Notes: generated by a model not told the origin, from the sequence alone. Positions 3,367 through 62,818 are shown, numbered from the stretch's first letter. The stretch: 64,000 bases of DNA from a bacterium (GCA_043816765.1 JBDRHN010000023.1:17353-81352); one strand, 5' to 3'. A program made the numbers and translations.

Positions 3367-3906
3367 CTATCCTGATTTCCTCTGAAACACTTTCTTTTTA
3401 AAACCCTTGTTCGCCCAATGACCTTTTGATTCCCTGTCAAACAATTTTTTGTCTTTGGCAGAAGAAACAACAGACCCGCCTTCGCCTTTAATATCTTTTT
3501 CTTTTATTTCACTTGATTTTGGCGAATCAGTGGCAACTTTTTCAGCTTTTTTAATATTTTTTAATTTTGTTGGAACTTTTTCATCTAAAACCAAATTAAT
3601 ATGGCTTGCTTTTTTTCTAATCATTGCCGCCCGCCCGAAAGCTCTTTGCGTCCATCTTTTTATGGTAATGCCGCCGTCAACTCTAATTTCTTTAATAAAT
3701 AAATTACTTTTCTGCAGACCAAAATTATTTTCACCATTGGCAATAGCCGAATTTAATAACTTTAAAACATCTTTTGCTGATCTTTTATTTAAAAAACTTA
3801 GCTGTTTCTGAGCCTCTTGCGCGTCCATTCCTTTGACTAAATTAACCACCAGCCTTACTTTTTTTGGACTAATTCTTAAATTTTTTATACTTGCTTTTAC
3901 TTGCAT
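3367..3906 (-). CDS. rplV: 50S ribosomal protein L22 with long charged C-terminal extension
   Basis: MQVKASIKNLRISPKKVRLVVNLVKGM typical L22; start trimmed to internal ATG 3906; possible longer start at 3945. Confidence 0.9.
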   Translation of the reverse strand: MQVKASIKNLRISPKKVRLVVNLVKGMDAQEAQKQLSFLNKRSAKDVLKLLNSAIANGENNFGLQKSNLFIKEIRVDGGITIKRWTQRAFGRAAMIRKKASHINLVLDEKVPTKLKNIKKAEKVATDSPKSSEIKEKDIKGEGGSVVSSAKDKKLFDRESKGHWANKGFKKKVFQRKSG

Positions 3907-4265: not shown

Positions 4266-4358
4266 AATATTTTAGTAATCGGCAACAAGTCCTTCGCAAC
4301 TATAATAATTTTAAATTTACTGATTACTGATTACTGATTACTTATTACTTATTACTTA

Positions 4359-5201
4359 TTACTTTCTCTTGCTTTTCCTTCGCGAAACAATCATCTTGCT
4401 GGAAAATTTTTTCTTTTTTCTGGTTTTAACGCCAAGCGCGCATTTTCCCCATGGTGTCTTTGGTCCTTTCAAGCCAATAGACGTATTTCCCTCTCCTCCG
4501 CCATGCGGATGATCGCATGGATTCATCGCTTTTCCTCTTACTGACGGCCTAAAACCCCTATGGCGCAATCTTCCCGCCTTGCCCCAACGAATATTTTTAT
4601 AATCAAGATTGCTAACTACTCCAACTGTGGCTAAACATTCTTTTGGTATCATGCGGATTTCGCTTGAAGGCAATTTAATGTGCGTATATTTTCCTTCTGT
4701 TCCCAGTACTTTTATGCTGGTTCCAGCCCCTCTCCCTAATTCGCCGCCCTTTCCTGAAATTAACTCAACATTATGAACAAACATTCCTGTCGGAATAAAT
4801 TCAATAGGCATTCTGTTGCCATTTTTAATTTCAATATCTTTTTTGGAAGAAATAACAACATCATTAATTTTCAAACCGTTGGTTGCTATAATATAACTTC
4901 TTTCTCCGTTTTTGTAAAGCAACCTTGCTATTCTTGCGTTTCTATTTGGATCATATTCAATCGTTTCAATTTTTGCTGGAATATCAAATATATCCTGCTT
5001 AAAATCAATTAAACGAATTCGTCTTTTCGCTCCGCCCCCGCGATGCCTGATTGTAATCTTTCCGCTTGAATTGCGACCAGCCTTTCTTTTCTTTGCTATA
5101 GTTAATTTTTTTAATGGCGAGGCAATTGTGATATCGCTAAAATCATCAACGTTTGAAATGCGACGACCTGGCGATGTTGGCTTGTATCTCTTAATTCCCA
5201 T
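4359..5201 (-). CDS. rplB: 50S ribosomal protein L2
   Basis: MGIKRYKPTSPGRR... and C-terminal GGGEGNTSIG; ORF-track N-extension trimmed. Confidence 0.93.
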   Translation of the reverse strand: MGIKRYKPTSPGRRISNVDDFSDITIASPLKKLTIAKKRKAGRNSSGKITIRHRGGGAKRRIRLIDFKQDIFDIPAKIETIEYDPNRNARIARLLYKNGERSYIIATNGLKINDVVISSKKDIEIKNGNRMPIEFIPTGMFVHNVELISGKGGELGRGAGTSIKVLGTEGKYTHIKLPSSEIRMIPKECLATVGVVSNLDYKNIRWGKAGRLRHRGFRPSVRGKAMNPCDHPHGGGEGNTSIGLKGPKTPWGKCALGVKTRKKKKFSSKMIVSRRKSKRK

Positions 5202-5206
5202 ATTTT

Positions 5207-5704
5207 TTATATCCCTTCGTAAATTTGTATACTTTTGCCTTTTGGTAGAGTAATAATAGCTTTTTTCCAATCTTTTCTTTTTCCATAAACTCTTCCGAAA
5301 CGAACTTTTTTACCTTGAGCATTGATTATATTAACTTTAATAGGTTTAATTCCATATACAGCTTCAATCGCTTTTTTAATCTCAGGCTTATTCGCTCTTT
5401 TGCTAACTATAAAAATATATTGATTCATCTTTCCCGCCTCTGCGGCTTTCTCGCTAATCAATGGTTTGATTAAAACTTTATAAGCATCTTTTGTGTTTTC
5501 TTTCAACTCTTTTTTTGATTCTTTCTTTGCTTCCTTGCTGCTGGATTCTTTTAACAATTCTTTCTTTGTCTCTTTTGCGCCATCTTTTGCTTTATCATCC
5601 TTTTTTGGCTCAACCTCAATAATAGAAGCCTTTTTTTTTGCCTCTTTTTCTTCATCTTTGCCTTTAAACTTTAACGATTTTAATGTTTTATTTAAAAAAC
5701 CCAT
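5207..5704 (-). CDS. rplW: 50S ribosomal protein L23 with Lys/Glu-rich N-terminal extension
   Basis: core YKVLIKPLISEKAAEAGKMNQYIFIV..; 70-aa KE-rich N-terminus; true start uncertain. Confidence 0.85.
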   Translation of the reverse strand: MGFLNKTLKSLKFKGKDEEKEAKKKASIIEVEPKKDDKAKDGAKETKKELLKESSSKEAKKESKKELKENTKDAYKVLIKPLISEKAAEAGKMNQYIFIVSKRANKPEIKKAIEAVYGIKPIKVNIINAQGKKVRFGRVYGKRKDWKKAIITLPKGKSIQIYEGI

Positions 5705-5785
5705 TTTTGAAATTGTTATATAATTATATTGCTAATTAATTTTAGGACTTCCGCGTTTTTTGTTAAAATTTCAGAAATCAACTCA

Positions 5786-6526
5786 TTATTTTGCCGCCGG
5801 CTTCAGATAAGTCTTTTCAATCACTTTTAAACTATCCAACGGCATAATTAAATATTTATATTTCAACACATCAACAACATTCAAACTATCTGCCTTAATA
5901 ATTTCTATGTTTTTTAAGTTTCGCGCTGACAAAAGAATCGGCTCCTGTTTTTGGGGAATTATTATCAAAGATTTGGCAATTTCTTTGATTTCCAACATAT
6001 TTTTCTCAGCTTGTTTATTATTTAATTTCTTGTCTTTGGCTTTATTTATCGGTTTGATTTTTTTAACTTTTGTTTCAAAAACTGGCAATTTTTTTAAAAT
6101 ATCAAGAAGTCTTCCTGTCTTAGCCTTGTCTATATCCAAATCTTTAAGCAAAATAATCCAACCGCTTTTAGCCTTGTCGCTTAAACACATAAACAGAGCT
6201 TTTTTCTTCATCTTCTTATTAATCTGTTTTGTAAAATTCCTTGTGTTGCGCGGTCCGAATGTGACCCCTCCGCCTACCCATAACGGCGAACGAATAGAAC
6301 CATGCCTTGCTCGCCCAGTCCCTTTTTGCTTCCAAGGTTTTTTACCTCCGCCGCGCACTTCTCCGCGATCTTTTGTGTGCGCTAATATCTGCCTGGCATT
6401 CGCCAATTGAGCCTCCGCCGCTTGATGAACTAATCCGATGTTTAATTCAATATCAAAAATATTCGGATTTAATTCTATATCCTCAACAACTTCGCCATTT
6501 ATATTGTAAACTTTTGTCTTATTCAT
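5786..6526 (-). CDS. rplD: 50S ribosomal protein L4
   Basis: GGGKKPWKQKGTGRARHGSIRSPLWVGGG motif; start trimmed to 6526. Confidence 0.92.
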   Translation of the reverse strand: MNKTKVYNINGEVVEDIELNPNIFDIELNIGLVHQAAEAQLANARQILAHTKDRGEVRGGGKKPWKQKGTGRARHGSIRSPLWVGGGVTFGPRNTRNFTKQINKKMKKKALFMCLSDKAKSGWIILLKDLDIDKAKTGRLLDILKKLPVFETKVKKIKPINKAKDKKLNNKQAEKNMLEIKEIAKSLIIIPQKQEPILLSARNLKNIEIIKADSLNVVDVLKYKYLIMPLDSLKVIEKTYLKPAAK

Positions 6527-7814: not shown

Positions 7815-7894
7815 CTTTATTTGAGTAATCGCAATCAGTAACTAGTAATTTTAAAATTACCGTTTACTAGTTACTGATTACTGATTACTTAATT

Positions 7895-14840: not shown

Positions 14841-14897
14841 AATAAAAACGTAGAGACACGCCATTGGCGTGTCTCTACGTTTTTATTTTAAATATTC

Positions 14898-16763
<1,866 letters not shown>

Positions 16764-16807
16764 TTATTAAAGTCCTAGCGGAAATTTTAGAATAGAACCA
16801 CTTTCAA

Positions 16808-16836
16808 CTTAGACGAGGCAGTGCCTCGTCTCTACA
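16808..16836. repeat. 29-bp palindrome family A (GTAGAGACGAGGCA[C/G]TGCCTCGTCTCTAC), copy in groES-groEL spacer
   Basis: TTAGACGAGGCAGTGCCTCGTCTCTACA. Confidence 0.8.
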
Positions 16837-16849
16837 TTCAATCATCGCG

Positions 16850-21511: not shown

Positions 21512-21525
21512 AAAGTTAGTGTTTT

Positions 21526-21584
21526 GTAGAGACGAGGCACTGCCTCGTCTCCAGCCCAAGACGCGGCAGTGCCTCGTCTCTACA
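21526..21584. repeat. family A palindrome, two adjacent copies between the purP paralogs
   Basis: GTAGAGACGAGGCACTGCCTCGTCTC and AAGACGCGGCAGTGCCTCGTCTCTACA. Confidence 0.85.
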
Positions 21585-21586
21585 AA

Positions 21587-31974: not shown

Positions 31975-32073
31975 CAAAAACCTGTATCCTGAACTGTCAC
32001 CGGATGGTGGCGTGGCTGGGACTCCCAGCATAGGGACGTGGTTGGGAAAAGCCCTTTTTTAGGGCGTTTTTTT
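31975..32073 (+). ncRNA. candidate small RNA (~100 nt) ending at intrinsic terminator
   Basis: no CDS; GC-rich structured core; terminator GCCCTTTTTTAGGGC + T7 at 32051-32073. Confidence 0.4.
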
Positions 32074-32162: not shown

Positions 32163-32410
32163 CTGTCATTCCAGAAAATTTTTTCCCACGGCATTTAACA
32201 ATAGTATTTTGCTCTGCTTAGAATGATATTAACAAAAACTTGGTTAAACTCACTGAAAAAATTTATCTGGAATCCAGGAGGCATTGCAATAACTCCTGGA
32301 TTCCAAATAAATTTTTTAATCTTATTGTTCTGGCTATTATTAAATAAAAAATATTATTTTATTTTAATTTGTTTTAATCAGCGCCGTGGAAAAAATTTTT
32401 TGGAATGACA
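32163..32410. mobile_element. MITE-like element (~250 bp) with 27-bp terminal inverted repeats and central palindrome
   Basis: TIR GTCATTCCAGAAAATTTTTTCCCACGGC / GCCGTGGAAAAAATTTTTTGGAATGAC; central CTGGAATCCAGGAG..CTCCTGGATTCCA; related partial copy 54760-54920. Confidence 0.6.
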
Positions 32411-32442: not shown

Positions 32443-33444
32443 CTATAACGTCGTAATCGGCCTTGACTGCGTGATATAAAATTTACCTTTTGAAAAAGCC
32501 CATTCAATGTCTTGCGGTTTTTTGTAATGCTTTTCAATTTGACAGCAAATTTTGGACAGTTCAATTATTTGCTTGTTATTTAATTTCTGTTTTTCTTGTT
32601 TTGATTTTGAAACAGGTTGCCACACAATTCCTGAACTGGTTGAATTTTTGCGAACCAACATTTTTTCTTGCTCTGCAATATTTATATCTAAAATTTCAAA
32701 TTCTCCATCGTAGAGACGAGGCACTGCCTCGTCTCTATACTTGTTCACAATATAACTGTCCGGCGTTATCTGTCCTGAAACTATCGCCTCTCCCAGTCCG
32801 TATCCGGCTTCAATGATCATCTGATTTTTATCTTTTGTGATGGGGTGAACAGTGAAACAGACCCCTGATATTTCTGACTGGATCATTTTCTGAACCACAA
32901 CGGCAACGCCGATTTTTTGGTCAACTAAATTTTTTTCATAACGGTAAAAAATCGCTCTTGAGGTATAAAGCGATGACCAGCATTTCTTAACGTTTTTTAA
33001 AAGCGTTTTTTTTGTTGTGTTTAAATATGTTTCCAGCTCCCCGGCCCATGACGCTACTATTGAATCTTCTGCTGTGGCTGAACTGCGCACCGCCACAGAT
33101 TTTGCTTTAAGTTTTTTAAATTCCGCGTTAATTTCGTTAATTAAAACTTTCTGAATTTTGGTGTCGTTTATAATATCGCGAATAATATTAGACGCGCGGT
33201 CAATGGAATTTATGTCATCAAAATTTATTTGAGATAATTGGGCTTTTATTTCCAGCCCGACTTCCGCTGTCTCCGCGCGCGATCTCGCGCTTAAAAAATA
33301 ATCAAATGCGTCGGCTAAAATAACAAAACCATTCGGAACCGGAATTTTTACGTTAATCATTTCTCCGAGCGACGCGCCTTTCCCGCCGGCGGTTTTAATG
33401 TCTCTTGCGGAGATTTTTGAGAATGGGGAGGTGAATTTTGGCAT
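32443..33444 (-). CDS. PPDK_N-type ATP-grasp protein (PEP synthase / rifampin phosphotransferase N-domain family), stand-alone, with in-frame palindrome insertion
   Basis: GGKGASLGEM motif, RSSATAEDS, DIEWA..QSRPIT; insertion YRDEAVPRLYDGE at 32710-32738. Confidence 0.8.
   Translation of the reverse strand: MPKFTSPFSKISARDIKTAGGKGASLGEMINVKIPVPNGFVILADAFDYFLSARSRAETAEVGLEIKAQLSQINFDDINSIDRASNIIRDIINDTKIQKVLINEINAEFKKLKAKSVAVRSSATAEDSIVASWAGELETYLNTTKKTLLKNVKKCWSSLYTSRAIFYRYEKNLVDQKIGVAVVVQKMIQSEISGVCFTVHPITKDKNQMIIEAGYGLGEAIVSGQITPDSYIVNKYRDEAVPRLYDGEFEILDINIAEQEKMLVRKNSTSSGIVWQPVSKSKQEKQKLNNKQIIELSKICCQIEKHYKKPQDIEWAFSKGKFYITQSRPITTL
32710..32738. repeat. family A palindrome inside PPDK_N CDS (in frame)
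   Basis: GTAGAGACGAGGCACTGCCTCGTCTCTAT. Confidence 0.85.
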
Positions 33445-39511: not shown

Positions 39512-39629
39512 ACTTTTCTAAAGATACAAAGATACAAGATACAATAACCAAAAAATAATCAAACGTTCAGAATTTTTTTTACATCTTATATTCTTGTGTT
39601 TTTTATTTTAAAATTATTATTACTGACAT

Positions 39630-39690
39630 CAAACGAGGCAATGCCTCATCTCTACAATCTTGGCGTATCGCAATACGCCTCTACAATAAC
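39630..39690. repeat. family A variant palindrome plus GGCGTATCGCAATACGCC hairpin, upstream of efp
   Basis: CAAACGAGGCAATGCCTCATCTCTACA. Confidence 0.7.
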
Positions 39691-42926: not shown

Positions 42927-43385
42927 TCAGGTGGTAATATAAATTAAACAAATAATAATAACCAATTGCAACAATAAGCCCTGCTTGACTGTCATTTTTG
43001 AGGGTATATAATTATGAATATAGCCATGAAAACTGCTAAAAGGCTTTAAAAATTTGGGTTTAAAAATTTGATAATATATATTTAAAACATCTGGTAAAAT
43101 ACTGCCGAGAACAGCCCAAAAAATATGAGCTGATTTTGGAATTATTGTATATGTAAAAATATAAAGAAGATAAAAAATAGTAATGAAAGCGTCAAGAATG
43201 TTTAGACTCAAAATCAAATCTCTATTAATGCGGCGGCTAAACCAATGCATTAAATTTCCGTCTCCATGGGGGATGAAATCTAAAACAAAATGAGAAACGA
43301 CCGCTAAAAGAAAAATTCCAGTAGCTGATGTTGTTATGCTCTTGGCGATAATAACGCCGATGGCTGTGTGAACGGAGATTAACAT
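42927..43385 (-). CDS. membrane protein, YdjM/DUF457-like metal-dependent hydrolase (tentative)
   Basis: 4-5 TM helices, HFVLDFIPHGD motif. Confidence 0.45.
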   Translation of the reverse strand: MLISVHTAIGVIIAKSITTSATGIFLLAVVSHFVLDFIPHGDGNLMHWFSRRINRDLILSLNILDAFITIFYLLYIFTYTIIPKSAHIFWAVLGSILPDVLNIYYQIFKPKFLKPFSSFHGYIHNYIPSKMTVKQGLLLQLVIIICLIYITT

Positions 43386-43471
43386 AATTTAGTAATTAGT
43401 AACTAGTAATCAGTAACTAGTAAATTCCTATCCCTTATTACTGATTACTAGTTACTAATTACTAAAACATG

Positions 43472-43545
43472 TAGCAGGAGTGGGGCTTGAACCCACGACC
43501 TTGGCGTTATGAGTGCCACGCTCTAACCAGCTGAGCTATCCTGCC
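43472..43545 (-). tRNA. tRNA-Met (anticodon CAU; Ile-lysidine not excluded)
   Basis: manual cloverleaf: acceptor GGCAGGA/TCCTGCT, D-arm GCTC/GAGC, anticodon loop CTCATAA, T-arm GTGGG-TTCAAGC-CCCAC. Confidence 0.75.
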
Positions 43546-46061: not shown

Positions 46062-46064
46062 TTT

Positions 46065-46093
46065 GTAGAGACGAGGCACTGCCTCGTCTCTAC
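46065..46093. repeat. family A palindrome between 7TM gene and ATP-grasp gene
   Basis: GTAGAGACGAGGCACTGCCTCGTCTCTACA. Confidence 0.85.
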
Positions 46094-46109
46094 ATTATTT
46101 TATTAATTT

Positions 46110-48458
46110 ATGTCTTTTAGAAAAACAAAAAAAGAAATTTTAGGCATTAACGCGAGGAATTTGCTTTATATTTCCAAATATAATTCCAGAGCGGCCAAAA
46201 AATTTGCTGATGATAAAATTTATACAAAAAATTATCTGCAGTCCCGCGATATGCCCGCCGCGCGGTTGTATCAAGTTATTCGGTCTTATACTGAATTGGA
46301 TAATTTTAATCCAGAAAGTCTTCCCGGCAGTTTTGTGATAAAACCAAACAAGGGATATGGCGGCGAAGGGATTATTGTTGTTGTGGATAAAAAAAATGAT
46401 AAATACATATCAGTTGACGGCACTAAATACAGATGGGATGGCGAGCTGTATCGCCATTGCGAAAGTATCCTAAGCGGACGTTATTCAATTTCCGGATTGC
46501 ATGATCAGATTATCTTTGAAGAATATTTAATCCGTCATGATTATTTTGATAAATTCACAAGCAAGGGTCTGCCGGATGTTCGCATTATTGTTTTTAATCT
46601 GATTCCCGTGATGGCGATGCTCCGGCTTCCAACGGAAGAATCTAAAGGAAAAGCAAATGTTCATTTGGGCGGGATTGGTCTTGGTATTGATATGAAAAGC
46701 GGAAAAACAACTTATGGTGTTACGCAAAAAAGCGTTTACAAAAATGAATTTATAAAAATCTTGCCAAATGGGGATCCTACAAACAGTATAACAATCCCCT
46801 ATTGGGATGAGATATTGCTAATGTCAGCTAAAGCTCAGGCCGCGAGCAAAATTGGTTATTTGGCGGCTGATTTGGCGATTACAAAAACAGGTGTAAAAAT
46901 TTTAGAATTAAACGCGCGCGCGGGGCTGGCTCTGCAAATTGCCAACCTCTCCCCTCTTCGGGCGCGTTTGGATAAGATTGTTGATTTGAAAGTTCTTACT
47001 CCCGAGCAAGGGGTTGAGATAAGTAAAACATTATTTACCAAAACCGCTTTACCTGCAAAAAAGGATGAAAATAAAACAGAAAGTTCAAAGCAGATTATCG
47101 GACTATATGAAAAAATAGAGATTTTGAATACTAAACATAAATCTATTTTAGCAAAAATCGATCCATGGGCAAAAGAAAATATTATTGATCAAGACATGGA
47201 TATTGAAGGACAAGACAAAATAGCGACAATTAAACTTTTAAACAAAAGAGTTACTTTTCCCTTTGTGAAAAAAAAACTCGGAGACGTTAATTATAAAGTT
47301 GTTATCGCGGGAAAATATTTAACGGATTTTTTGATTGACGCTAGCATCAGCAAACCGCAAGAACGAAAGGGTAAAAGCAATGTTGAGCAGGATGAAAAAA
47401 TTGCCATCAATGTTGATAAAAAAATCTGCCAAATTGATGAGGCTGTTCATCTGTTATCGTATTTACGTCCTTTAAATTTAGACGAGGAAAAAACAGCTTT
47501 TTTTGAGCATGCTAATTACAACCCTAAATTCATTTACCGCAAAGTCGCTATTGATGTTGAGCAACTTAAAAAAGATTTAAAAAAAATCCCGACTAAATTC
47601 AAACATCCTTTGGCTCCACTTTTTGTAAATAAAATAAAAGAGGTTGATAATAAATTATCTTTGATTGAGTCGGTTGATACTCCGAAACTTCAATTTTTTT
47701 CAGAAAAGCTTTATAGCGGCGTTGATAAAAATTTATATGATCAGGCTGTTGAATATATAAAACAGAATCCTATTACCAAAGATGAGAGTAAGATTTTAAA
47801 TTTTAAGACGAGCATAAAAAAAATCGAAAAATCGTTGAAAGAAAATAAATTGCATGGCTGGAAAATAAAAATAGTTGAAGGGGTGGCTGTTGATATGCAG
47901 GTTAATAAATCGGGGACTATTTTTGTTAAAAAAGGAGCGGAATTTTCGGTCAACAGATTGGAAAGTTTGATAGCGCACGAAATTAAAACCCATATTTTTA
48001 GGTTGGAAAATGGACGTTTGCAAAAATATAGAATTTTTGAAAGGGGCACTGCTGAGTATCTGACAACGGAAGAGGGGTTATCTATTTACAACCAAAACGC
48101 TTTAGGGATTCATTTGGGAGACAAACAGATATGGCCGGCGTTAAATGTTATTGCGGTATATATGGGATCGAAAATGAGTTTTCGCGAGTTACATAATTAT
48201 TTGATGGAAAACTATTTTATCAGCGCTGAATCGGCATGGAAAACATGCGTTAAGGCGAAAAGGGGTTATACGGACACGGGAGAACATCTGGTTTTCGCCA
48301 AAGACCATATTTATTTTAAAGGTTTGATGATGGTTGAAAAATTTGTTAAAAATTATGGGAAAGAGAAGTTGAAAGATTTGTATATTGGTAAAATCGGGGT
48401 TAATGAATTGAAATATGTTAAAAATATAAAGGATTATAGGGTGAAGTATTTGCCTTGA
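46110..48458 (+). CDS. fusion protein: RimK/alpha-L-glutamate-ligase-like ATP-grasp (N) + DUF1704 (QEGLA/MATCAP-like putative metallopeptidase) (C)
   Basis: N-terminus ILGINARNLLYISKYNSRAAKKFADDKIYTK matches TIGR02291-type ATP-grasps; C-half has HEIKTH and TEEGLS (QEGLA-like) motifs. Confidence 0.65.
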   Translation: MSFRKTKKEILGINARNLLYISKYNSRAAKKFADDKIYTKNYLQSRDMPAARLYQVIRSYTELDNFNPESLPGSFVIKPNKGYGGEGIIVVVDKKNDKYISVDGTKYRWDGELYRHCESILSGRYSISGLHDQIIFEEYLIRHDYFDKFTSKGLPDVRIIVFNLIPVMAMLRLPTEESKGKANVHLGGIGLGIDMKSGKTTYGVTQKSVYKNEFIKILPNGDPTNSITIPYWDEILLMSAKAQAASKIGYLAADLAITKTGVKILELNARAGLALQIANLSPLRARLDKIVDLKVLTPEQGVEISKTLFTKTALPAKKDENKTESSKQIIGLYEKIEILNTKHKSILAKIDPWAKENIIDQDMDIEGQDKIATIKLLNKRVTFPFVKKKLGDVNYKVVIAGKYLTDFLIDASISKPQERKGKSNVEQDEKIAINVDKKICQIDEAVHLLSYLRPLNLDEEKTAFFEHANYNPKFIYRKVAIDVEQLKKDLKKIPTKFKHPLAPLFVNKIKEVDNKLSLIESVDTPKLQFFSEKLYSGVDKNLYDQAVEYIKQNPITKDESKILNFKTSIKKIEKSLKENKLHGWKIKIVEGVAVDMQVNKSGTIFVKKGAEFSVNRLESLIAHEIKTHIFRLENGRLQKYRIFERGTAEYLTTEEGLSIYNQNALGIHLGDKQIWPALNVIAVYMGSKMSFRELHNYLMENYFISAESAWKTCVKAKRGYTDTGEHLVFAKDHIYFKGLMMVEKFVKNYGKEKLKDLYIGKIGVNELKYVKNIKDYRVKYLP

Positions 48459-48511
48459 TTCTTTTTGTATAACAAGGTAATATAAACTAGGTATAAAAAG
48501 CTAAGATTATT

Positions 48512-49450
48512 ATGAAAAAAATAATTGCGATTTATTTTTCCGACCCTGAGCCAATGGGATATCCTTTTGGAAAATCTCAATATTTAGAAATATACAAAGA
48601 AATTATTAGCAAAATTGAAAGCCACGGAATTGATGTTTTTATTGTGCGAGGAGACAGCTATATTTCAGATGGGCGCTTTAAAAGGGCATGGCAATTTATA
48701 GACGGAAACTTAAAAGAATCTAAAGGAGAAATTCGCGCTGATCTTATTTTCAATAGAGATGATAAAAACACCATACCTCTTATCCATGATTGTAAAATCA
48801 TAAATAAGCCGGAATTTGATCAAATGTGTGTTGATAAAATAAAAACATTTGAAGCCTTTCCCGATATTTCTCCGAAAACCGCATATATACATTCTTATCA
48901 AGCATTTTTAGAACAAATTGGTGAATGGCAAATGGAACCTGAGGAAATGATTGTTTTGAAAAAAAATTTTGAAACAGAGGGGCGCGGTATTTTTATAGTT
49001 CCGGTTTCGAATGTAAAAAAAGAATTATACTCAGATTGGAATGATATAATAATTCAGGAATTTTTAGACAGCTCAATTGGCATTCCGAATATTACAAATG
49101 GTTTACATGATTTGCGCGTAACAGTAATTAATGGCAGGCCGATAAATTCATTTCTTCGTGTTCCAAAAGAAGGGAGTTATCTTGCAAATGTTTCTCAGGG
49201 CGGACAGGGCACATCAATTGATCTTGATAATGTTCCGAAGGATGTTATTGATCTTGTTTGTCGCATTGACGAAAAAGTAAAAAAATATTTCCCGGCAATT
49301 TATGCCGCGGATTTTATCAATTCACCTAAGGGATATAAACTTCTTGAGTTGAATTCTCGTCCGGGGGTACAGCATCCTGATTGGTCAAAAACTTATAAAA
49401 AATTTAATGATGCTATAATTGATATGCTTGCGGAAGCGATAAAAGAATAA
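48512..49450 (+). CDS. ATP-grasp ligase (RimK/GshB-like)
   Basis: HDLRVTVINGRPI, SQGGQGTSIDLD, YKLLELNSRPG ATP-grasp C-domain motifs. Confidence 0.7.
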   Translation: MKKIIAIYFSDPEPMGYPFGKSQYLEIYKEIISKIESHGIDVFIVRGDSYISDGRFKRAWQFIDGNLKESKGEIRADLIFNRDDKNTIPLIHDCKIINKPEFDQMCVDKIKTFEAFPDISPKTAYIHSYQAFLEQIGEWQMEPEEMIVLKKNFETEGRGIFIVPVSNVKKELYSDWNDIIIQEFLDSSIGIPNITNGLHDLRVTVINGRPINSFLRVPKEGSYLANVSQGGQGTSIDLDNVPKDVIDLVCRIDEKVKKYFPAIYAADFINSPKGYKLLELNSRPGVQHPDWSKTYKKFNDAIIDMLAEAIKE

Positions 49451-49462
49451 AATTAAAAATAT

Positions 49463-50647
49463 ATGCAACAAAAAGGAAAATTCGGACAATACGGCGGGGT
49501 GTTCTCGCCGGAAACATTGATGCCCGCTTTGGAAGAGCTTGAAGCGGCTTATTTTAATATTGTTAAAAAAGATAAAAAGTTTAATGCTGAATTAAATTAT
49601 TTATTGCAACAATACGCGGGCAGACCGACGCCGCTTTATTTTGCGGAGAATTTGTCAAAAAAATTGGGACGTAAAATTTATCTCAAACGAGAAGACTTGT
49701 TGCATGGCGGAGCGCATAAGACTAACAATGGTTTGGGGCAAGGTTTGCTTGCCAAATATATGGGAAAGAAAAGGATTATAGCGGAAACGGGGGCGGGGCA
49801 GCATGGGTTTGCCGTAGCGATGATTGGCGCGTTTTTGGGGATACAGACGGAAGTATATATGGGCGTGGAAGATATAGAAAGGCAAAGAATGAATGTTCTG
49901 CGAATGAGGATGTGCGGGGCGAAAATTAATCCGGTTGAAATTCGTCCGGGGGTTGGTTCCCTCAAAGACGCGACTAACGAGGCGATGCGCGACTGGATAA
50001 CAAATGTTCGCACTACTTATTATATAATCGGTTCAGCGGTCGGGCCTCATCCGTATCCAACTATGGTGGCGCAATTTCAGAGAGTTATCAGCAAAGAGAT
50101 AAAAAAGCAGAGCATAAAACAGATCGGTAAATTGCCTGATACTGTGATTGCTTGCGTTGGCGGAGGCAGTAACGCAATCGGCGCTTTTTATGAATTTATT
50201 AATGATAAAAAAGTAAAGTTAATAGGCGTTGAGCCTGCCGGTTTGGGTGTTAATACGACTAAAACCGGAGCGTCAATCGGCAAAGGACGAGATGGAATAT
50301 TGCACGGTTCGCTGTCTAAAGTTCTTCAAGATAAAGACGGGCAAATTAAAGAGGCGTATAGCGTTTCCGCGGGGCTTGATTATCCGGGGGTTGGTCCGCA
50401 ACATGCTCATCTCGCAAAAACAGGGCGCGCGAAATACGAGGCTGTTACCGACAAAGAGGCGTTGGACGCGTTTGAATTGTTGTCAAAGTGCGAAGGAATC
50501 ATTCCCGCGCTTGAATCGGCTCATGCTGTTGCTTATGCTGTGAAATATGCTAAAATATGTCGGAAGGATGAGGTTGTGGTGGTTAATTTGTCGGGGCGGG
50601 GAGATAAAGATATGGAACATGTGAGCTCTCTAATAGGACACAGATAA
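49463..50647 (+). CDS. trpB: tryptophan synthase beta chain
   Basis: full-length TrpB (PLP Lys region [17 protein letters not shown]). Confidence 0.96.
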
Positions 50648-50740
50648 ACACAGACTAAAGCGCAGATAAACACAGATAAAATTATAAAAAATCAGTGTTC
50701 ATCTGCGCCCGAATGGTCAGTGTTTATTTGTGTGCTATTA
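50638..50740 (+). repeat. ~100-bp CAGATAAACACAG-family repeat, copy 1 (overlaps trpB stop)
   Basis: near-identical to 51138-51240; internal imperfect palindrome GCGCAGATAAACAC...GTGTTCATCTGCGC. Confidence 0.85.
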
Positions 50741-50747
50741 TATAAAT

Positions 50748-51155
50748 ATGCAAAATTATCAACACTCAGAATTGACCAAAAAAATTATTTCCTGTTTTTA
50801 TCAAGTCTACAATACTCTCGGTTATGGGTTTTTAGAAAAGGTCTATGAAAATTCTTTAATAAAAGAGTTGAATAAAAATGGATTAAAACCAGTTCAACAA
50901 ATGCCGATTAAGGTTTATTATGAAGGTGAATTGGTTGGTGATTATTTTGCAGATATTGTTGTTGAAAATTTGGTGATATTAGAACTAAAAGCGCAGGAAC
51001 TTCTATGCCCTGAGAACGAAGCTCAGCTATTGAACTATTTAAAAGCAACGAAGTATGAGATTGGTTTATTGTTAAATTTTGGAACAAAGCCAGAGATAAG
51101 GCGAAAAATATATAGCAATAATTTAAAGAATTCAACACAGATAAACACAGACTAA
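50748..51155 (+). CDS. GxxExxY protein (predicted PD-(D/E)xK nuclease fold)
   Basis: LGYGFLEKVYENSL motif plus DIVVEN..LELK; flanked by direct repeats; start at ATG 50748. Confidence 0.75.
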   Translation: MQNYQHSELTKKIISCFYQVYNTLGYGFLEKVYENSLIKELNKNGLKPVQQMPIKVYYEGELVGDYFADIVVENLVILELKAQELLCPENEAQLLNYLKATKYEIGLLLNFGTKPEIRRKIYSNNLKNSTQINTD

Positions 51156-51240
51156 AGCGCAGATAAACACAGATAAAATTATAAAAAATCAGTGTTCATC
51201 TGCGCCCGAAGGGTCAGTGTTTATTTGTGTGCTATTTAAA
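51138..51240 (+). repeat. ~100-bp repeat, copy 2 (direct repeat of copy 1)
   Basis: approximately one mismatch over ~100 bp relative to copy 1. Confidence 0.85.
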
Positions 51241-51243
51241 GAT

Positions 51244-52041
51244 ATGTCATTGATAGATAAAAAATTCAAACCAAACCAAGGAACGCTTGCCATTGGTACT
51301 GTTCCCGGATATCCCGACATGGAAACGAGTTTTGAAATCGTTAAGGCTATTGTTTCCGGCGGGGCGGATATTTTGGAGATGTCTTCTTCTTTTTCTGATC
51401 CTATTGCTGATGGTCCGACACTGCAACAAGCGCACGCGCAAATTTTAAAACATGGCGTTACAAAAGCGCAAGTGTTTAATTTTTATAAAAAAATAAAAAA
51501 AAATTATCCTGAAATTCCAATATTTGTGATTGAGTATTCTAATATTGTTTATACCAACGGCATTGATAATTATTATAAAAAATTAAAAGAGGGCGGGGTT
51601 GATTTGCTTTTAATTCCGGATGTTCCGCTTGAGGAGCTAAAGCCCTACAGCGCGGCGGCTAAAACATACGGAATCGGCCAGTCTTATATAGCGGCGCCGA
51701 CAACGGATAATGAAAGGCTGAAAAAAATTATTCCAAATGTTAACGGTTTTATATATGTGGCAACGGTAACAGGGATTACCGGCGCGAGAAAAAATGTTGA
51801 GGATGAGACTAAAAAGCTTTTGCGAAGAATTAAAACACAGACAAAAATTCCATTGGTCGCGGGGTTTGGAATCAGTAAGCCGGAACACGTAAAAACAGCT
51901 TTGAAATCTGGCGCAGATGGGGTTGTGATCTGTTCGCAGATTATTAATATTATTAATAAAAATTTGAAAAATAAGAAGAAGATGTTGAGTGAGGTTGAGG
52001 GGTTTGTGAAGGAAATGAAAAAAGCCTGCAGTCATTACTAA
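51244..52041 (+). CDS. trpA: tryptophan synthase alpha chain
   Basis: TrpA TIM barrel; start at ATG 51244, because the ORF-track N-terminus lies in the repeat. Confidence 0.92.
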   Translation: MSLIDKKFKPNQGTLAIGTVPGYPDMETSFEIVKAIVSGGADILEMSSSFSDPIADGPTLQQAHAQILKHGVTKAQVFNFYKKIKKNYPEIPIFVIEYSNIVYTNGIDNYYKKLKEGGVDLLLIPDVPLEELKPYSAAAKTYGIGQSYIAAPTTDNERLKKIIPNVNGFIYVATVTGITGARKNVEDETKKLLRRIKTQTKIPLVAGFGISKPEHVKTALKSGADGVVICSQIINIINKNLKNKKKMLSEVEGFVKEMKKACSHY

Positions 52042-54045: not shown

Positions 54046-54150
54046 TGAATAGCACACAGATGAACACTGACCCTGCGGGCGCAGATTAACACTAATTTTT
54101 TATAATTTTAAATCTGTGTTTATCTGCGCTTTAGTCTGTGTTAATCTGTG
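54046..54150 (-). repeat. ~100-bp CAGATAAACACAG-family repeat, copy 3 (inverted orientation)
   Basis: ATCTGTGTTTATCTGCGCTTTAGTCTGTGTTAATCTG is the reverse complement of copy-1 5' part. Confidence 0.8.
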
Positions 54151-54166
54151 TCCTATTTTTTTAATT

Positions 54167-54703
54167 ATGTATTTTGTAAAATTAAAAACCAAAAAAGATA
54201 CTGTTGGTTTTGCTAATCAAATAGCTAATATTTGCAACAATCAAACCCCCCAACCCCCCTTGTCAGGGGGGCTATATGTTGTTGCCCTCATTGGCGAGCT
54301 TGGGGTTGGGAAGACTTTTTTTACGAAAGCTTTGGGAAAGGCGCTTGGGGTTAAAGAAACGATTAAAAGTCCGAGTTTTAATTTGATGAAAGTTTATGAA
54401 ATACCGGGCAGACGAACCGTAGAGACGAGGCAGTGCCTCGTCTCTACACAAATCAAAACGTTAGTTCATGTTGATTGTTATCGTTTGAATAGTGCTGAGG
54501 AGTTAATTGATATTGGGCTTTTGGATTATTTTGGATATAATAATACTCTTATTGTTATTGAGTGGGCTGATAAAATAAAAAAAATCTTGCCGAAAGATGC
54601 AGTTTGGGTAAAATTTAAAATGGGAAAAGATGGGGTGAGAATGGCGGCGGTGAATTTAAAACCAATGTCATTCCAAAAAATTTTTTCCATCAATATTAGT
54701 TAA
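54167..54703 (+). CDS. tsaE: tRNA t6A biosynthesis ATPase TsaE with two in-frame palindromic insertions
   Basis: Walker A GELGVGKT; SPSFNLMKVYE...LVHVDCYRL TsaE signature interrupted by RRTVETRQCLVST (54419-54448); QTPQPPLSGG insertion at 54243-54272; start at ATG 54167. Confidence 0.78.
   Translation: MYFVKLKTKKDTVGFANQIANICNNQTPQPPLSGGLYVVALIGELGVGKTFFTKALGKALGVKETIKSPSFNLMKVYEIPGRRTVETRQCLVSTQIKTLVHVDCYRLNSAEELIDIGLLDYFGYNNTLIVIEWADKIKKILPKDAVWVKFKMGKDGVRMAAVNLKPMSFQKIFSINIS
54419..54448. repeat. family A palindrome inside tsaE (in frame)
   Basis: GTAGAGACGAGGCAGTGCCTCGTCTCTACA. Confidence 0.85.
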
Positions 54704-54759
54704 CGTAAACCAAAATAGAATAATATTACTTTAGTAAAAATCTATATTAATGAGATTAA

Positions 54760-54920
54760 AAAATTTATTTGGAATCCAGGAGGAATTGCACAAACCCCTG
54801 GATTCCAGATAAATTTTTTCAGTGCATTAATTAATTTTTTGTTAATATTAGATTTTAATCAAAGTAAAAATGTTTGCTTAAGGGCGATGGAAAAAATTTT
54901 CTGGAATGACAGGCTTTGGT
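54760..54920. mobile_element. partial MITE-like element (central palindrome + right TIR), related to 32163-32410
   Basis: TTTGGAATCCAGGAGG..CCCTGGATTCCAGA and GCGATGGAAAAAATTTTCTGGAATGACAGG. Confidence 0.5.
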
Positions 54921-62287: not shown

Positions 62288-62410
62288 CAGACTATCTAAA
62301 AATCATATCTGTGTTAATCTTCGCTTTAGTCTGTGTTCATCTGTGTCCTATTTTCAATCAACCCAAGCTAAAAAATAATTAGACGCAGATTAACACTGAC
62401 CCTTCGGGCG
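62288..62410 (-). repeat. CAGATAAACACAG-family repeat, copy 4 (rearranged, inverted)
   Basis: ATCTGTGTTAATCTTCGCTTTAGTCTGTGTTCATCTGTG ... AGACGCAGATTAACACTGACCCTTCGGGCG. Confidence 0.7.
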
Positions 62411-62818
62411 CTGAAAAACACAGATTTTAGATAAAAACTTTTTTAATTCAGGAACAATATCATCTATGTTCTCGTATTCAATCACAATATCGGTAATACC
62501 TTTTGCGGTATCTTTCAATAAAACTCCGCGCTTCACAAGAACTATTATTTTTTTATTCATTGCATAAGCAATTCCCGCTTCTATGGCGCGCCCTGTTGAC
62601 TTATGCGTGAGATCAATCAATAGCGCGTCGCATGATTTAATCTCCTGTTTTGTTATTGCCATCATTTCCAACGGATTATCAAAAAAATTTTGATAATTTT
62701 CTATATCACGAATAAAACAAAAATCATTAAATCCTGCTTGCTTTGCAATATTGCAAAGATGTTCTATCTCGGATTGGTTTTCACCGTGCTTAAAAGTGGC
62801 TGTAATAAATAACTTCAT
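62390..62818 (-). CDS. nucleoside 2-deoxyribosyltransferase-like protein
   Basis: HKSTGRAIEAGIAYAMNKKIIVL resembles the NDT-family active-site region; C-terminus overlaps the repeat. Confidence 0.5.
   Translation of the reverse strand: MKLFITATFKHGENQSEIEHLCNIAKQAGFNDFCFIRDIENYQNFFDNPLEMMAITKQEIKSCDALLIDLTHKSTGRAIEAGIAYAMNKKIIVLVKRGVLLKDTAKGITDIVIEYENIDDIVPELKKFLSKICVFQRPKGQC

Follow-up and report, generated by a model that had tools for sequence, protein, structure and literature searches.

The 64,000-nt stretch of bacterial DNA analyzed here, taken from a metagenome-assembled genome (GCA_043816765.1 JBDRHN010000023.1:17353-81352; referred to below as the window, with positions counted from its first letter), contains a small GxxExxY-family gene that is enclosed by two copies of a palindromic repeat at the junction between trpB and trpA. 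TrpB (394 aa, encoded at 49463-50647) matches PF00291 (PALP, 2.1e-41) and has syntenic counterparts at two related loci (L002 and L004), and TrpA (265 aa, encoded at 51244-52041) matches PF00290 (Trp_syntA, 5.6e-75). The gap between the two genes is 596 nt in the window and holds the small gene (50748-51155), which matches TIGR04256 and PF13366 (PDDEXK_3) and for which the ATG at 50748 was chosen as the start common to homologues. All three genes and both repeats lie on the plus strand. An earlier note, generated by a model from the sequence alone, had described this insert as a small gene between direct repeats; the arrangement is real, with several borders shifted. The GxxExxY protein is present as described but has 135 rather than 136 aa. 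The left repeat (palindrome A, 50632-50739) overlaps the end of trpB as stated, but it begins at 50632 (AATAGGAC...) instead of 50638 and takes in the final four codons of trpB together with its TAA stop (ATA GGA CAC AGA TAA). The right repeat (palindrome B, 51129-51236), in direct orientation relative to A, does adjoin trpA, but it ends at 51236, so that 7 nt instead of 4 nt separate it from the trpA ATG. The open reading frame (ORF) of the small gene itself runs into copy B, which contains its last eight codons and its stop; the C-terminal residues NSTQINTD are translated repeat.

The direct repeat proper (50638-50739 and 51135-51236, offset 497 nt) spans 102 nt with 99% identity (101/102), the sole mismatch being T/G (CCCGAATGG versus CCCGAAGGG), and the left tip reads AATAGG in palindrome A and AATTCA in palindrome B. 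Each copy is in turn a palindrome of about 105-108 nt with the structure H1-loop-H2, a feature that was not noticed in the first reading. In palindrome A, the H1 arm (50632-50677) is followed by a 13-nt A/T loop and the H2 arm (about 50691-50739), so that the repeat runs from AATAGGACAC... through arm H1, the loop and arm H2 to ...GTGTGCTATT. Each arm consists of four CACWGAT-type heptamers at spacings of 10, 12 and 10 nt. The repeat folds as a near-perfect hairpin of about 50 bp, with a folding free energy (dG) of -50.5 kcal/mol as RNA (z -11.5) and -27.7 as DNA (z -9.4). When H1 is compared with its reverse-complemented partner arm, the central W matches at 15 positions and differs at 16, the CAC.GA flanks are conserved, and the inter-heptamer spacers are unlike between paired arms (TAAAG versus CCCGAAGGG). 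Because the central base does not co-vary and the flanks are kept, constraint appears to act on the heptamer motif and not on base pairing. This motif-level conservation, together with the one-turn spacing of the heptamers, points to arrays of protein-binding sites. What look like generic direct repeats in the window are thus the doubled arms of terminal arrays that belong to the element itself.

The same arrays recur elsewhere in the window. The window contains 19 matches to the 14-mer CAGATAAACACWGA with up to two mismatches, where 0.78 would be expected; this count is reached in 0/100 shuffles, and all except three of these matches fall in copies A and B and in two further copies on the minus strand. 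Copy C (54048-54157), between the gene of a 408-aa membrane protein and tsaE, is a complete gene-less palindrome in opposite orientation and is 85-88% identical. Copy D (62307-62425) is rearranged, with the H2 arm (62377-62425), a 24-nt spacer and the H1 arm (62307-62352) in swapped order; an H2-spacer-H1 junction of this type also joins the tandem palindromes of L019 and is present in L008. Both gene-less copies had been reported in the earlier note, and only their coordinates and the swapped halves of the second had to be amended. To judge from their sequences, such solo copies are gene-less derivatives of the gene-plus-arms unit. A search of genome contigs with the repeat pattern CAGATNAACACAGACTAAAGCG returned two loci, of which L005 is chance-like and L006 is the element of L007 and L010, and a search of metagenome contigs returned four contigs, all with solo or permuted copies and none with a further copy that includes the gene. 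Rfam at its gathering threshold gave no match within the cassette. An integron attC interpretation was rejected, as the palindrome tips (AATAGG/AATTCR...GCTATT), on reading, carry no GTTRRRY core, although no systematic integrase search of the window was made.

The assignment of the small protein to the GxxExxY family, for which a hidden Markov model search had been proposed, is firm: the protein matches TIGR04256 with 133.6 bits (4e-39, cutoff 35) and PF13366 with 138.7 bits (1.4e-40, cutoff 22). The motif residues G27-F-L-E30-K-V-Y33, D69 and E79-L-K81 form an intact E...D...ExK site, and across 41 aligned sequences, E30, D69 and E79 never vary and K81 hardly does. An AlphaFold2 (AF2) model with a predicted local distance difference test (pLDDT) score of 89 displays the canonical PD-(D/E)xK core (restriction-endonuclease-like fold), and its nearest folds are nucleases. 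The protein is accordingly predicted to have an intact PD-(D/E)xK catalytic site. A domain search of the protein returned PF13366 only, with no DDE, HUH, or serine/tyrosine recombinase domain; the PDB, searched by sequence, contained no relative of the protein, and PADLOC and PHROGs gave no match. A representative search (E up to 1e-3) places the family at 15,280 clusters at 50% identity, and a search of a viral collection gave only two distant homologues. In some homologues, the N- or C-terminal extensions are translated repeat (NSTQI..., MNTD..., ...HRCTQMDAD). Two-domain GxxExxY proteins of about 250-275 aa also exist (P0241-P0245, P0252, P0299); these could be read-through-fused tandem cassettes or genuine single-chain dimers.

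The comparison took in 14 other GxxExxY loci at 13 distinct sites, covering Patescibacteria, Cloacimonetes, Ignavibacteria, Bacteroidota, Treponema, a viral contig and others. Inverted arms of like heptamer arrays surround the gene at 10 of the 14 loci, the commonest layout in other genomes, and at eight of these the inverted-repeat scores (33-75) are far above the maxima of shuffled controls (20-30). At three of the remaining four loci the arrays are arranged otherwise, and the fourth shows an inverted repeat of a different kind. The closest homologues (75-79% identity) are from other Patescibacteria at unrelated sites and are all flanked by the same heptamer arrays. The simplest layout, H1-gene-H2, is seen at ruvA|femAB (L011) and at carbonic anhydrase|pgk in L014, where H1 (2947-2993) and H2 (3381-3427) are 47-nt arms with 91% complementarity; the same junction in L015 has the order H1, gene, H1-H2. 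Inverted arms are also found in an Ignavibacteria locus (L021), in a GC-rich genome where they remain AT-rich (L025, CACWGATAAACAC), in a viral contig (L017, CACGGAT), in Bacteroides finegoldii (L028, cassette 1483-1857, CACAGAGGA three times) and in Bernardetia (L030, CACAGAGA), and the Treponema locus (L029) has a short inverted repeat with one CACGGAT. The Cloacimonetes locus (L019) has the order palindrome-gene-palindrome-palindrome, which matches the layout of the window. L034 combines direct H1-type arms with an upstream H2 fragment and a full downstream palindrome, the Fusobacteria locus (L027) has direct repeats, only an upstream CGCGAAG array was seen in Sphingomonas parapaucimobilis (L031, cassette 1471-1899), and a distant viral homologue (L018) lies in a different inverted repeat. 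The presence of heptamer arms around the gene at many independent sites indicates that gene and repeats form one unit. The heptamer also varies with the protein subfamily (CACAGAT, CACAGAG, CACGGAT, CGCGAAG), as expected for co-evolving recognition.

Relatives of the host show that the junction is variably occupied. By BLASTP, the window TrpA has three close relatives at 85, 81 and 71% identity (L003, L002 and L004, respectively), and the next, in Patescibacteria, are at about 55%; a look-up of the exact TrpA sequence gave no other record. L002 has the gene order 7TM_transglut, ATP-grasp, MATCAP, trpB, X, trpA, membrane protein, tsaE, in which X (5553-6000) is a gene for a 130-aa PF05635 protein (23S_rRNA_IVP, four-helix bundle) within 54-nt inverted repeats made of the tandem heptamers CTCAAAT, GCCAAAT, CTCAAAA and GTCAAAA. 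In L004, the trpB|trpA junction is 89 nt long and contains no gene. The empty-site comparison suggested in the earlier note therefore yielded one empty junction and one with a different gene, and occupancy differs among L002, L004 and the window. The contig of L003 begins 108 nt upstream of trpA, and its positions 1-125 include a terminus (GTCGTTCAGAATGACAGG) similar to that of a third palindromic family; this resemblance suggests that the junction in L003 holds yet another occupant. The third family, with ends ...TTTTTTGGAATGACAG, is present in the window at 32163-32410 and 54749-54912. The expectation that the repeat would occur elsewhere without cargo was likewise borne out, and the site of copy C is itself polymorphic: the membrane-protein|tsaE junction of L002 measures 13 nt and is empty. 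PF05635-type cassettes also occur at L011 (5679-6032) and L019 (4738-5136), in genomes with GxxExxY cassettes. An identical GxxExxY protein is on record only in L001, a 566-nt metagenome contig (ENA ERZ27247128 k141_62882) whose first 69 nt recur at its end; it is circularly permuted with a period of 497 and contains the gene, the palindrome and the gene start. This permutation could reflect a circle or a tandem copy, and equally an assembly loop or collapse in the assembly graph.

The cassette gene is oriented in the same direction as both neighbors at 10/10 distinct sites with two-sided gene calls (12 loci), for which the chance, if the neighbors are assumed to be co-directional, is (1/2)^10 or about 1e-3. 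The host junctions are often tight operons with usually short spacers, including trpB|trpA, fabD|fabG, ruvA|femAB, radA|FAD and ade|manC; in the cultured organisms (L031 and L028), the cassettes lie within the fabD|fabG and radA|FAD-protein junctions. A terminator scan found none in or beside the window cassette. As this absence is combined with co-orientation inside a host operon, the cassette gene is probably transcribed by read-through. A single promoter-like site (50714-50741) is made by the end of H2, and such sites are not enriched over shuffles.

On balance, the insert is probably a copy of a mobile two-part element composed of a PD-(D/E)xK nuclease-fold protein and phased heptamer arrays. 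The selfish or mobile cassette proposed in the earlier note is supported to this extent by the non-universal occupancy of the junction in relatives and by the cargo-less repeats elsewhere, and each of the refuting checks named in that note turned out in its favor; mobility is what we infer from these comparative data. In such an element, an oligomer of the protein would bind the phased heptamers and nick or cleave at or close to the array or palindrome, perhaps while the DNA is extruded as a hairpin or cruciform, and the cleavage would drive copying or relocation of the array, whether or not the gene goes with it. Copies with the gene would act as autonomous or master elements, and solo palindromes would be their non-autonomous progeny. 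The form seen in the window may have arisen when a gene-plus-palindrome unit recombined into a resident solo palindrome, or by gene conversion. The 99% identity of the flanking doublets points to a recent local duplication or gene conversion, and this near-identity of A and B (101/102) is recent, local and lineage-specific. The duplication of the palindrome as a systematic long target-site duplication was rejected, given that the three palindromes of L019 have a mean column identity of only 77%. A wider and more tentative proposal, which we regard as possible but less likely than not, is that GxxExxY genes and their arms make up a class of minimal mobile elements that is very widespread and has so far gone unrecognized, with one nuclease of about 125 aa as the sole encoded protein, mobilizing itself and solo copies that resemble REPINs (repetitive extragenic palindrome (REP) doublets forming hairpins) and living by read-through, and that cassettes of the S23p/intervening sequence (IVS) type are a sister class with which it competes for junctions.

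Several observations weigh against a mobile two-part element. For the cassette gene at carbonic anhydrase|pgk, the synonymous divergence (dS) between L014 and L015 is 1.03, compared with 0.64 and 1.14 for the flanking genes, and the ratio of nonsynonymous to synonymous divergence (dN/dS) is 0.05, compared with 0.24 and 0.20. The cassette is thus old at this site, with a long vertical residence, and more constrained than its housekeeping neighbors, which could mean a benefit to the host. Such long vertical inheritance under very strong purifying selection makes "selfish and recently landed" too simple a description for the family. Between the window copy and other copies, synonymous sites are saturated (proportion of synonymous differences, pS, about 0.8), and the 77-79% protein identity hence reflects constraint and gives no evidence of recent transfer. 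Target-site duplications were looked for without success at the ends of copies A, B and C and at L011, L014 and L015; a base-level comparison with an empty site was possible only for copy C versus L002, where none was apparent. The position of the gene relative to the arms is variable (H1-gene-H2, H2-gene-H1, H1-gene-H1-H2, and direct repeats in L027), and no single fixed homing or transposition geometry would explain it. To our knowledge, no PD-(D/E)xK protein acts alone as a transposase. The only functional entry found for the GxxExxY family lists its function as "Unknown" (PMC3424549). Recent horizontal transfer, considered in view of the 79% protein identity against 53% for TrpA, was rejected on account of the saturated synonymous sites and the dN/dS of 0.05.

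Among the alternatives to a mobile two-part element, an RNA-level cassette of the IVS type is rather unlikely. Here, the arms would pair in the operon transcript, spanning the gene or forming local hairpins, and be cut either by RNase III or by an endoribonuclease activity of the GxxExxY protein, which would separate the trpB, cassette and trpA messages; spread at the DNA level would be rare and occur by ordinary recombination, and the protein would serve in RNA processing or self-maintenance. The arms do fold as very stable RNA hairpins, the fact that the gene always runs in the same direction as the host genes is in keeping with dependence on a transcript, and the same junction in L002 carries a 23S_rRNA_IVP gene between inverted repeats. 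In the Coxiella IVS, furthermore, the ORF is preceded by GACAGAT heptamers in tandem (PMC4990558). However, pairing is not what is conserved, as the central heptamer base does not co-vary (15 versus 16) and the arm spacers differ, and direct arm order is found besides the inverted one (L015, L027 and L034). Solo palindromes at polymorphic sites require spread at the DNA level, and there is no obvious gain from splitting the trp message between trpB and trpA.

A slightly less probable alternative is that the protein is a nuclease or DNA-binding protein that benefits the host in repair, defence or regulation, with the arrays as its operators and the solo copies as regulatory sites. The low dN/dS (0.05) together with prolonged vertical inheritance at one of the sites, the very large and highly conserved family, and the resemblance of the arrays to phased protein-binding sites would all be consistent with such a role. 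The genomic context argues otherwise: the neighborhood is not conserved, with unrelated housekeeping genes beside the cassette in every genome, the cassette is present or absent at the same junction among close relatives, and the solo array at 54 kb is missing from the orthologous site of L002. PADLOC and PHROGs offer no match, and the read-through of the ORF into the arms and the fused tandem copies look like careless insertion rather than a regulatory design. Coincidence, with separate insertions of an unrelated palindromic miniature inverted-repeat transposable element (MITE) to the left and right of a resident GxxExxY gene, is highly improbable, as is an assembly artefact. The solo copies show that the palindrome can occur on its own, but at many unrelated sites in several phyla, homologous genes have repeats of the same family on either side. 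Although L001, the sole other record of the protein, breaks in the repeat and is permuted, which shows that the region is hard to assemble, the gene order around the locus agrees with that of L002, and an independent metagenome has identical gene-palindrome junctions.

The mobile two-part element favored here can be compared with several known systems. REP-associated tyrosine transposases (RAYTs) are encoded by short genes flanked by hairpin doublets of their own type, with the gene type matched to the repeat type (PMC3337134). The GxxExxY cassettes share with the REPIN/RAYT system a short gene (about 0.4-0.5 kb) between own-type hairpin doublets of about 90-110 nt, the type-specific pairing of gene and repeat, doublets scattered in intergenic sites, and long vertical persistence under purifying selection. 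They differ in that the window protein has a PD-(D/E)xK fold and not that of an HUH/Y1 (IS200-like) transposase, in that the arms are phased heptamer arrays in place of short GTAG-headed palindromes, and in that the GxxExxY gene is found at many sites and in operons and appears to move with its arms. The IVS elements with an ORF of the S23p family are excised from 23S rRNA by RNase III, and a role of the ORF in mobility has been speculated (PMC4990558). The GxxExxY cassettes resemble these PF05635 elements as units of about 0.4-0.5 kb with a small ORF between inverted repeats of short tandem repeats, as co-oriented insertions that depend on host transcription and as patchily distributed elements, and PF05635 cassettes occupy trpB|trpA in L002 and further sites in L011 and L019. 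An inverted-repeat stem encloses the small ORF in L011, L014, L021, L025, L028 and L030, whereas the arms in the window are doubled into two palindromes. By contrast, the ORF families are different, the insertion lies in an mRNA operon junction instead of an rRNA helix (there is no rRNA in the window), and arm pairing is not the conserved feature of the GxxExxY cassettes. Pairs of MITEs and their autonomous partners, which together with REPIN/RAYT systems are the nearest analogues, provide a parallel for gene-bearing and gene-less copies that share terminal arrays and for solo copies of about 105 nt that are polymorphic among relatives; unlike in such pairs, a target-site duplication was not found, the protein is outside the known transposase classes, and arm order is variable.

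Homing endonuclease genes can be free-standing or encode PD-(D/E)xK enzymes, for example I-Ssp6803I and the phage seg/mob genes. As in that group, a small gene for a nuclease-fold protein lies between conserved genes, close relatives vary in whether they carry it, and one and the same junction can be occupied by different selfish genes. The window protein differs from the I-Ssp6803I type in showing neither a close structural or sequence relationship nor a defined intron or intein host site. Searches of literature outside subscription journals found no account of the element under GxxExxY, PDDEXK_3, PF13366 or TIGR04256. The protein family is already annotated; what appears to be new is the gene-plus-palindrome layout of the element, which is absent from the literature covered.

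Three findings, namely the subfamily-specific arrays, the solo doublets and the polymorphic operon insertion, turn an anonymous annotation into a testable element. If the nuclease acts on the arms, it would represent a new class of enzyme for REPIN- and MITE-like repeats, would account for one type of palindrome between genes in Patescibacteria and other phyla, and would provide a link to the long-standing question of the nature of IVS-type cassettes. The elements would also affect annotation, because ORFs run into the arms and contigs break there.

With regard to the surroundings of the locus, the region upstream of trpB (46110-49450) encodes a 782-aa fusion of ATPgrasp_ST and MATCAP (tyrosine-carboxypeptidase-like) domains and a RimK-like ATP-grasp protein, and these genes are preceded by that of a 7TM_transglut protein. 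In the window, trpB and trpA have no other trp genes alongside, and in L004, trpE/G and trpD are located downstream. Other repeats in the window include a second family, a perfect 30-nt palindrome (GTAGAGACGAGGCACTGCCTCGTCTCTAC) that is REP-like with a GTAG head and is present in eight copies, mostly at gene ends (14849-14880, 16806-16837, 21525-21585, 32709-32740, 39626-39657, 46064-46095 and 54418-54449). Tandem or inverted repeats of the TTACTGATTACTGATTACT type are found at 4302-4365, 7843-7891 and 43382-43472, and one set abuts a tRNA (43472-43545). A match to the Rfam DUF3800-IX RNA (31979-32047, 52.9 bits, gathering score 36.8) adjoins the palindromic element at 32.2 kb.

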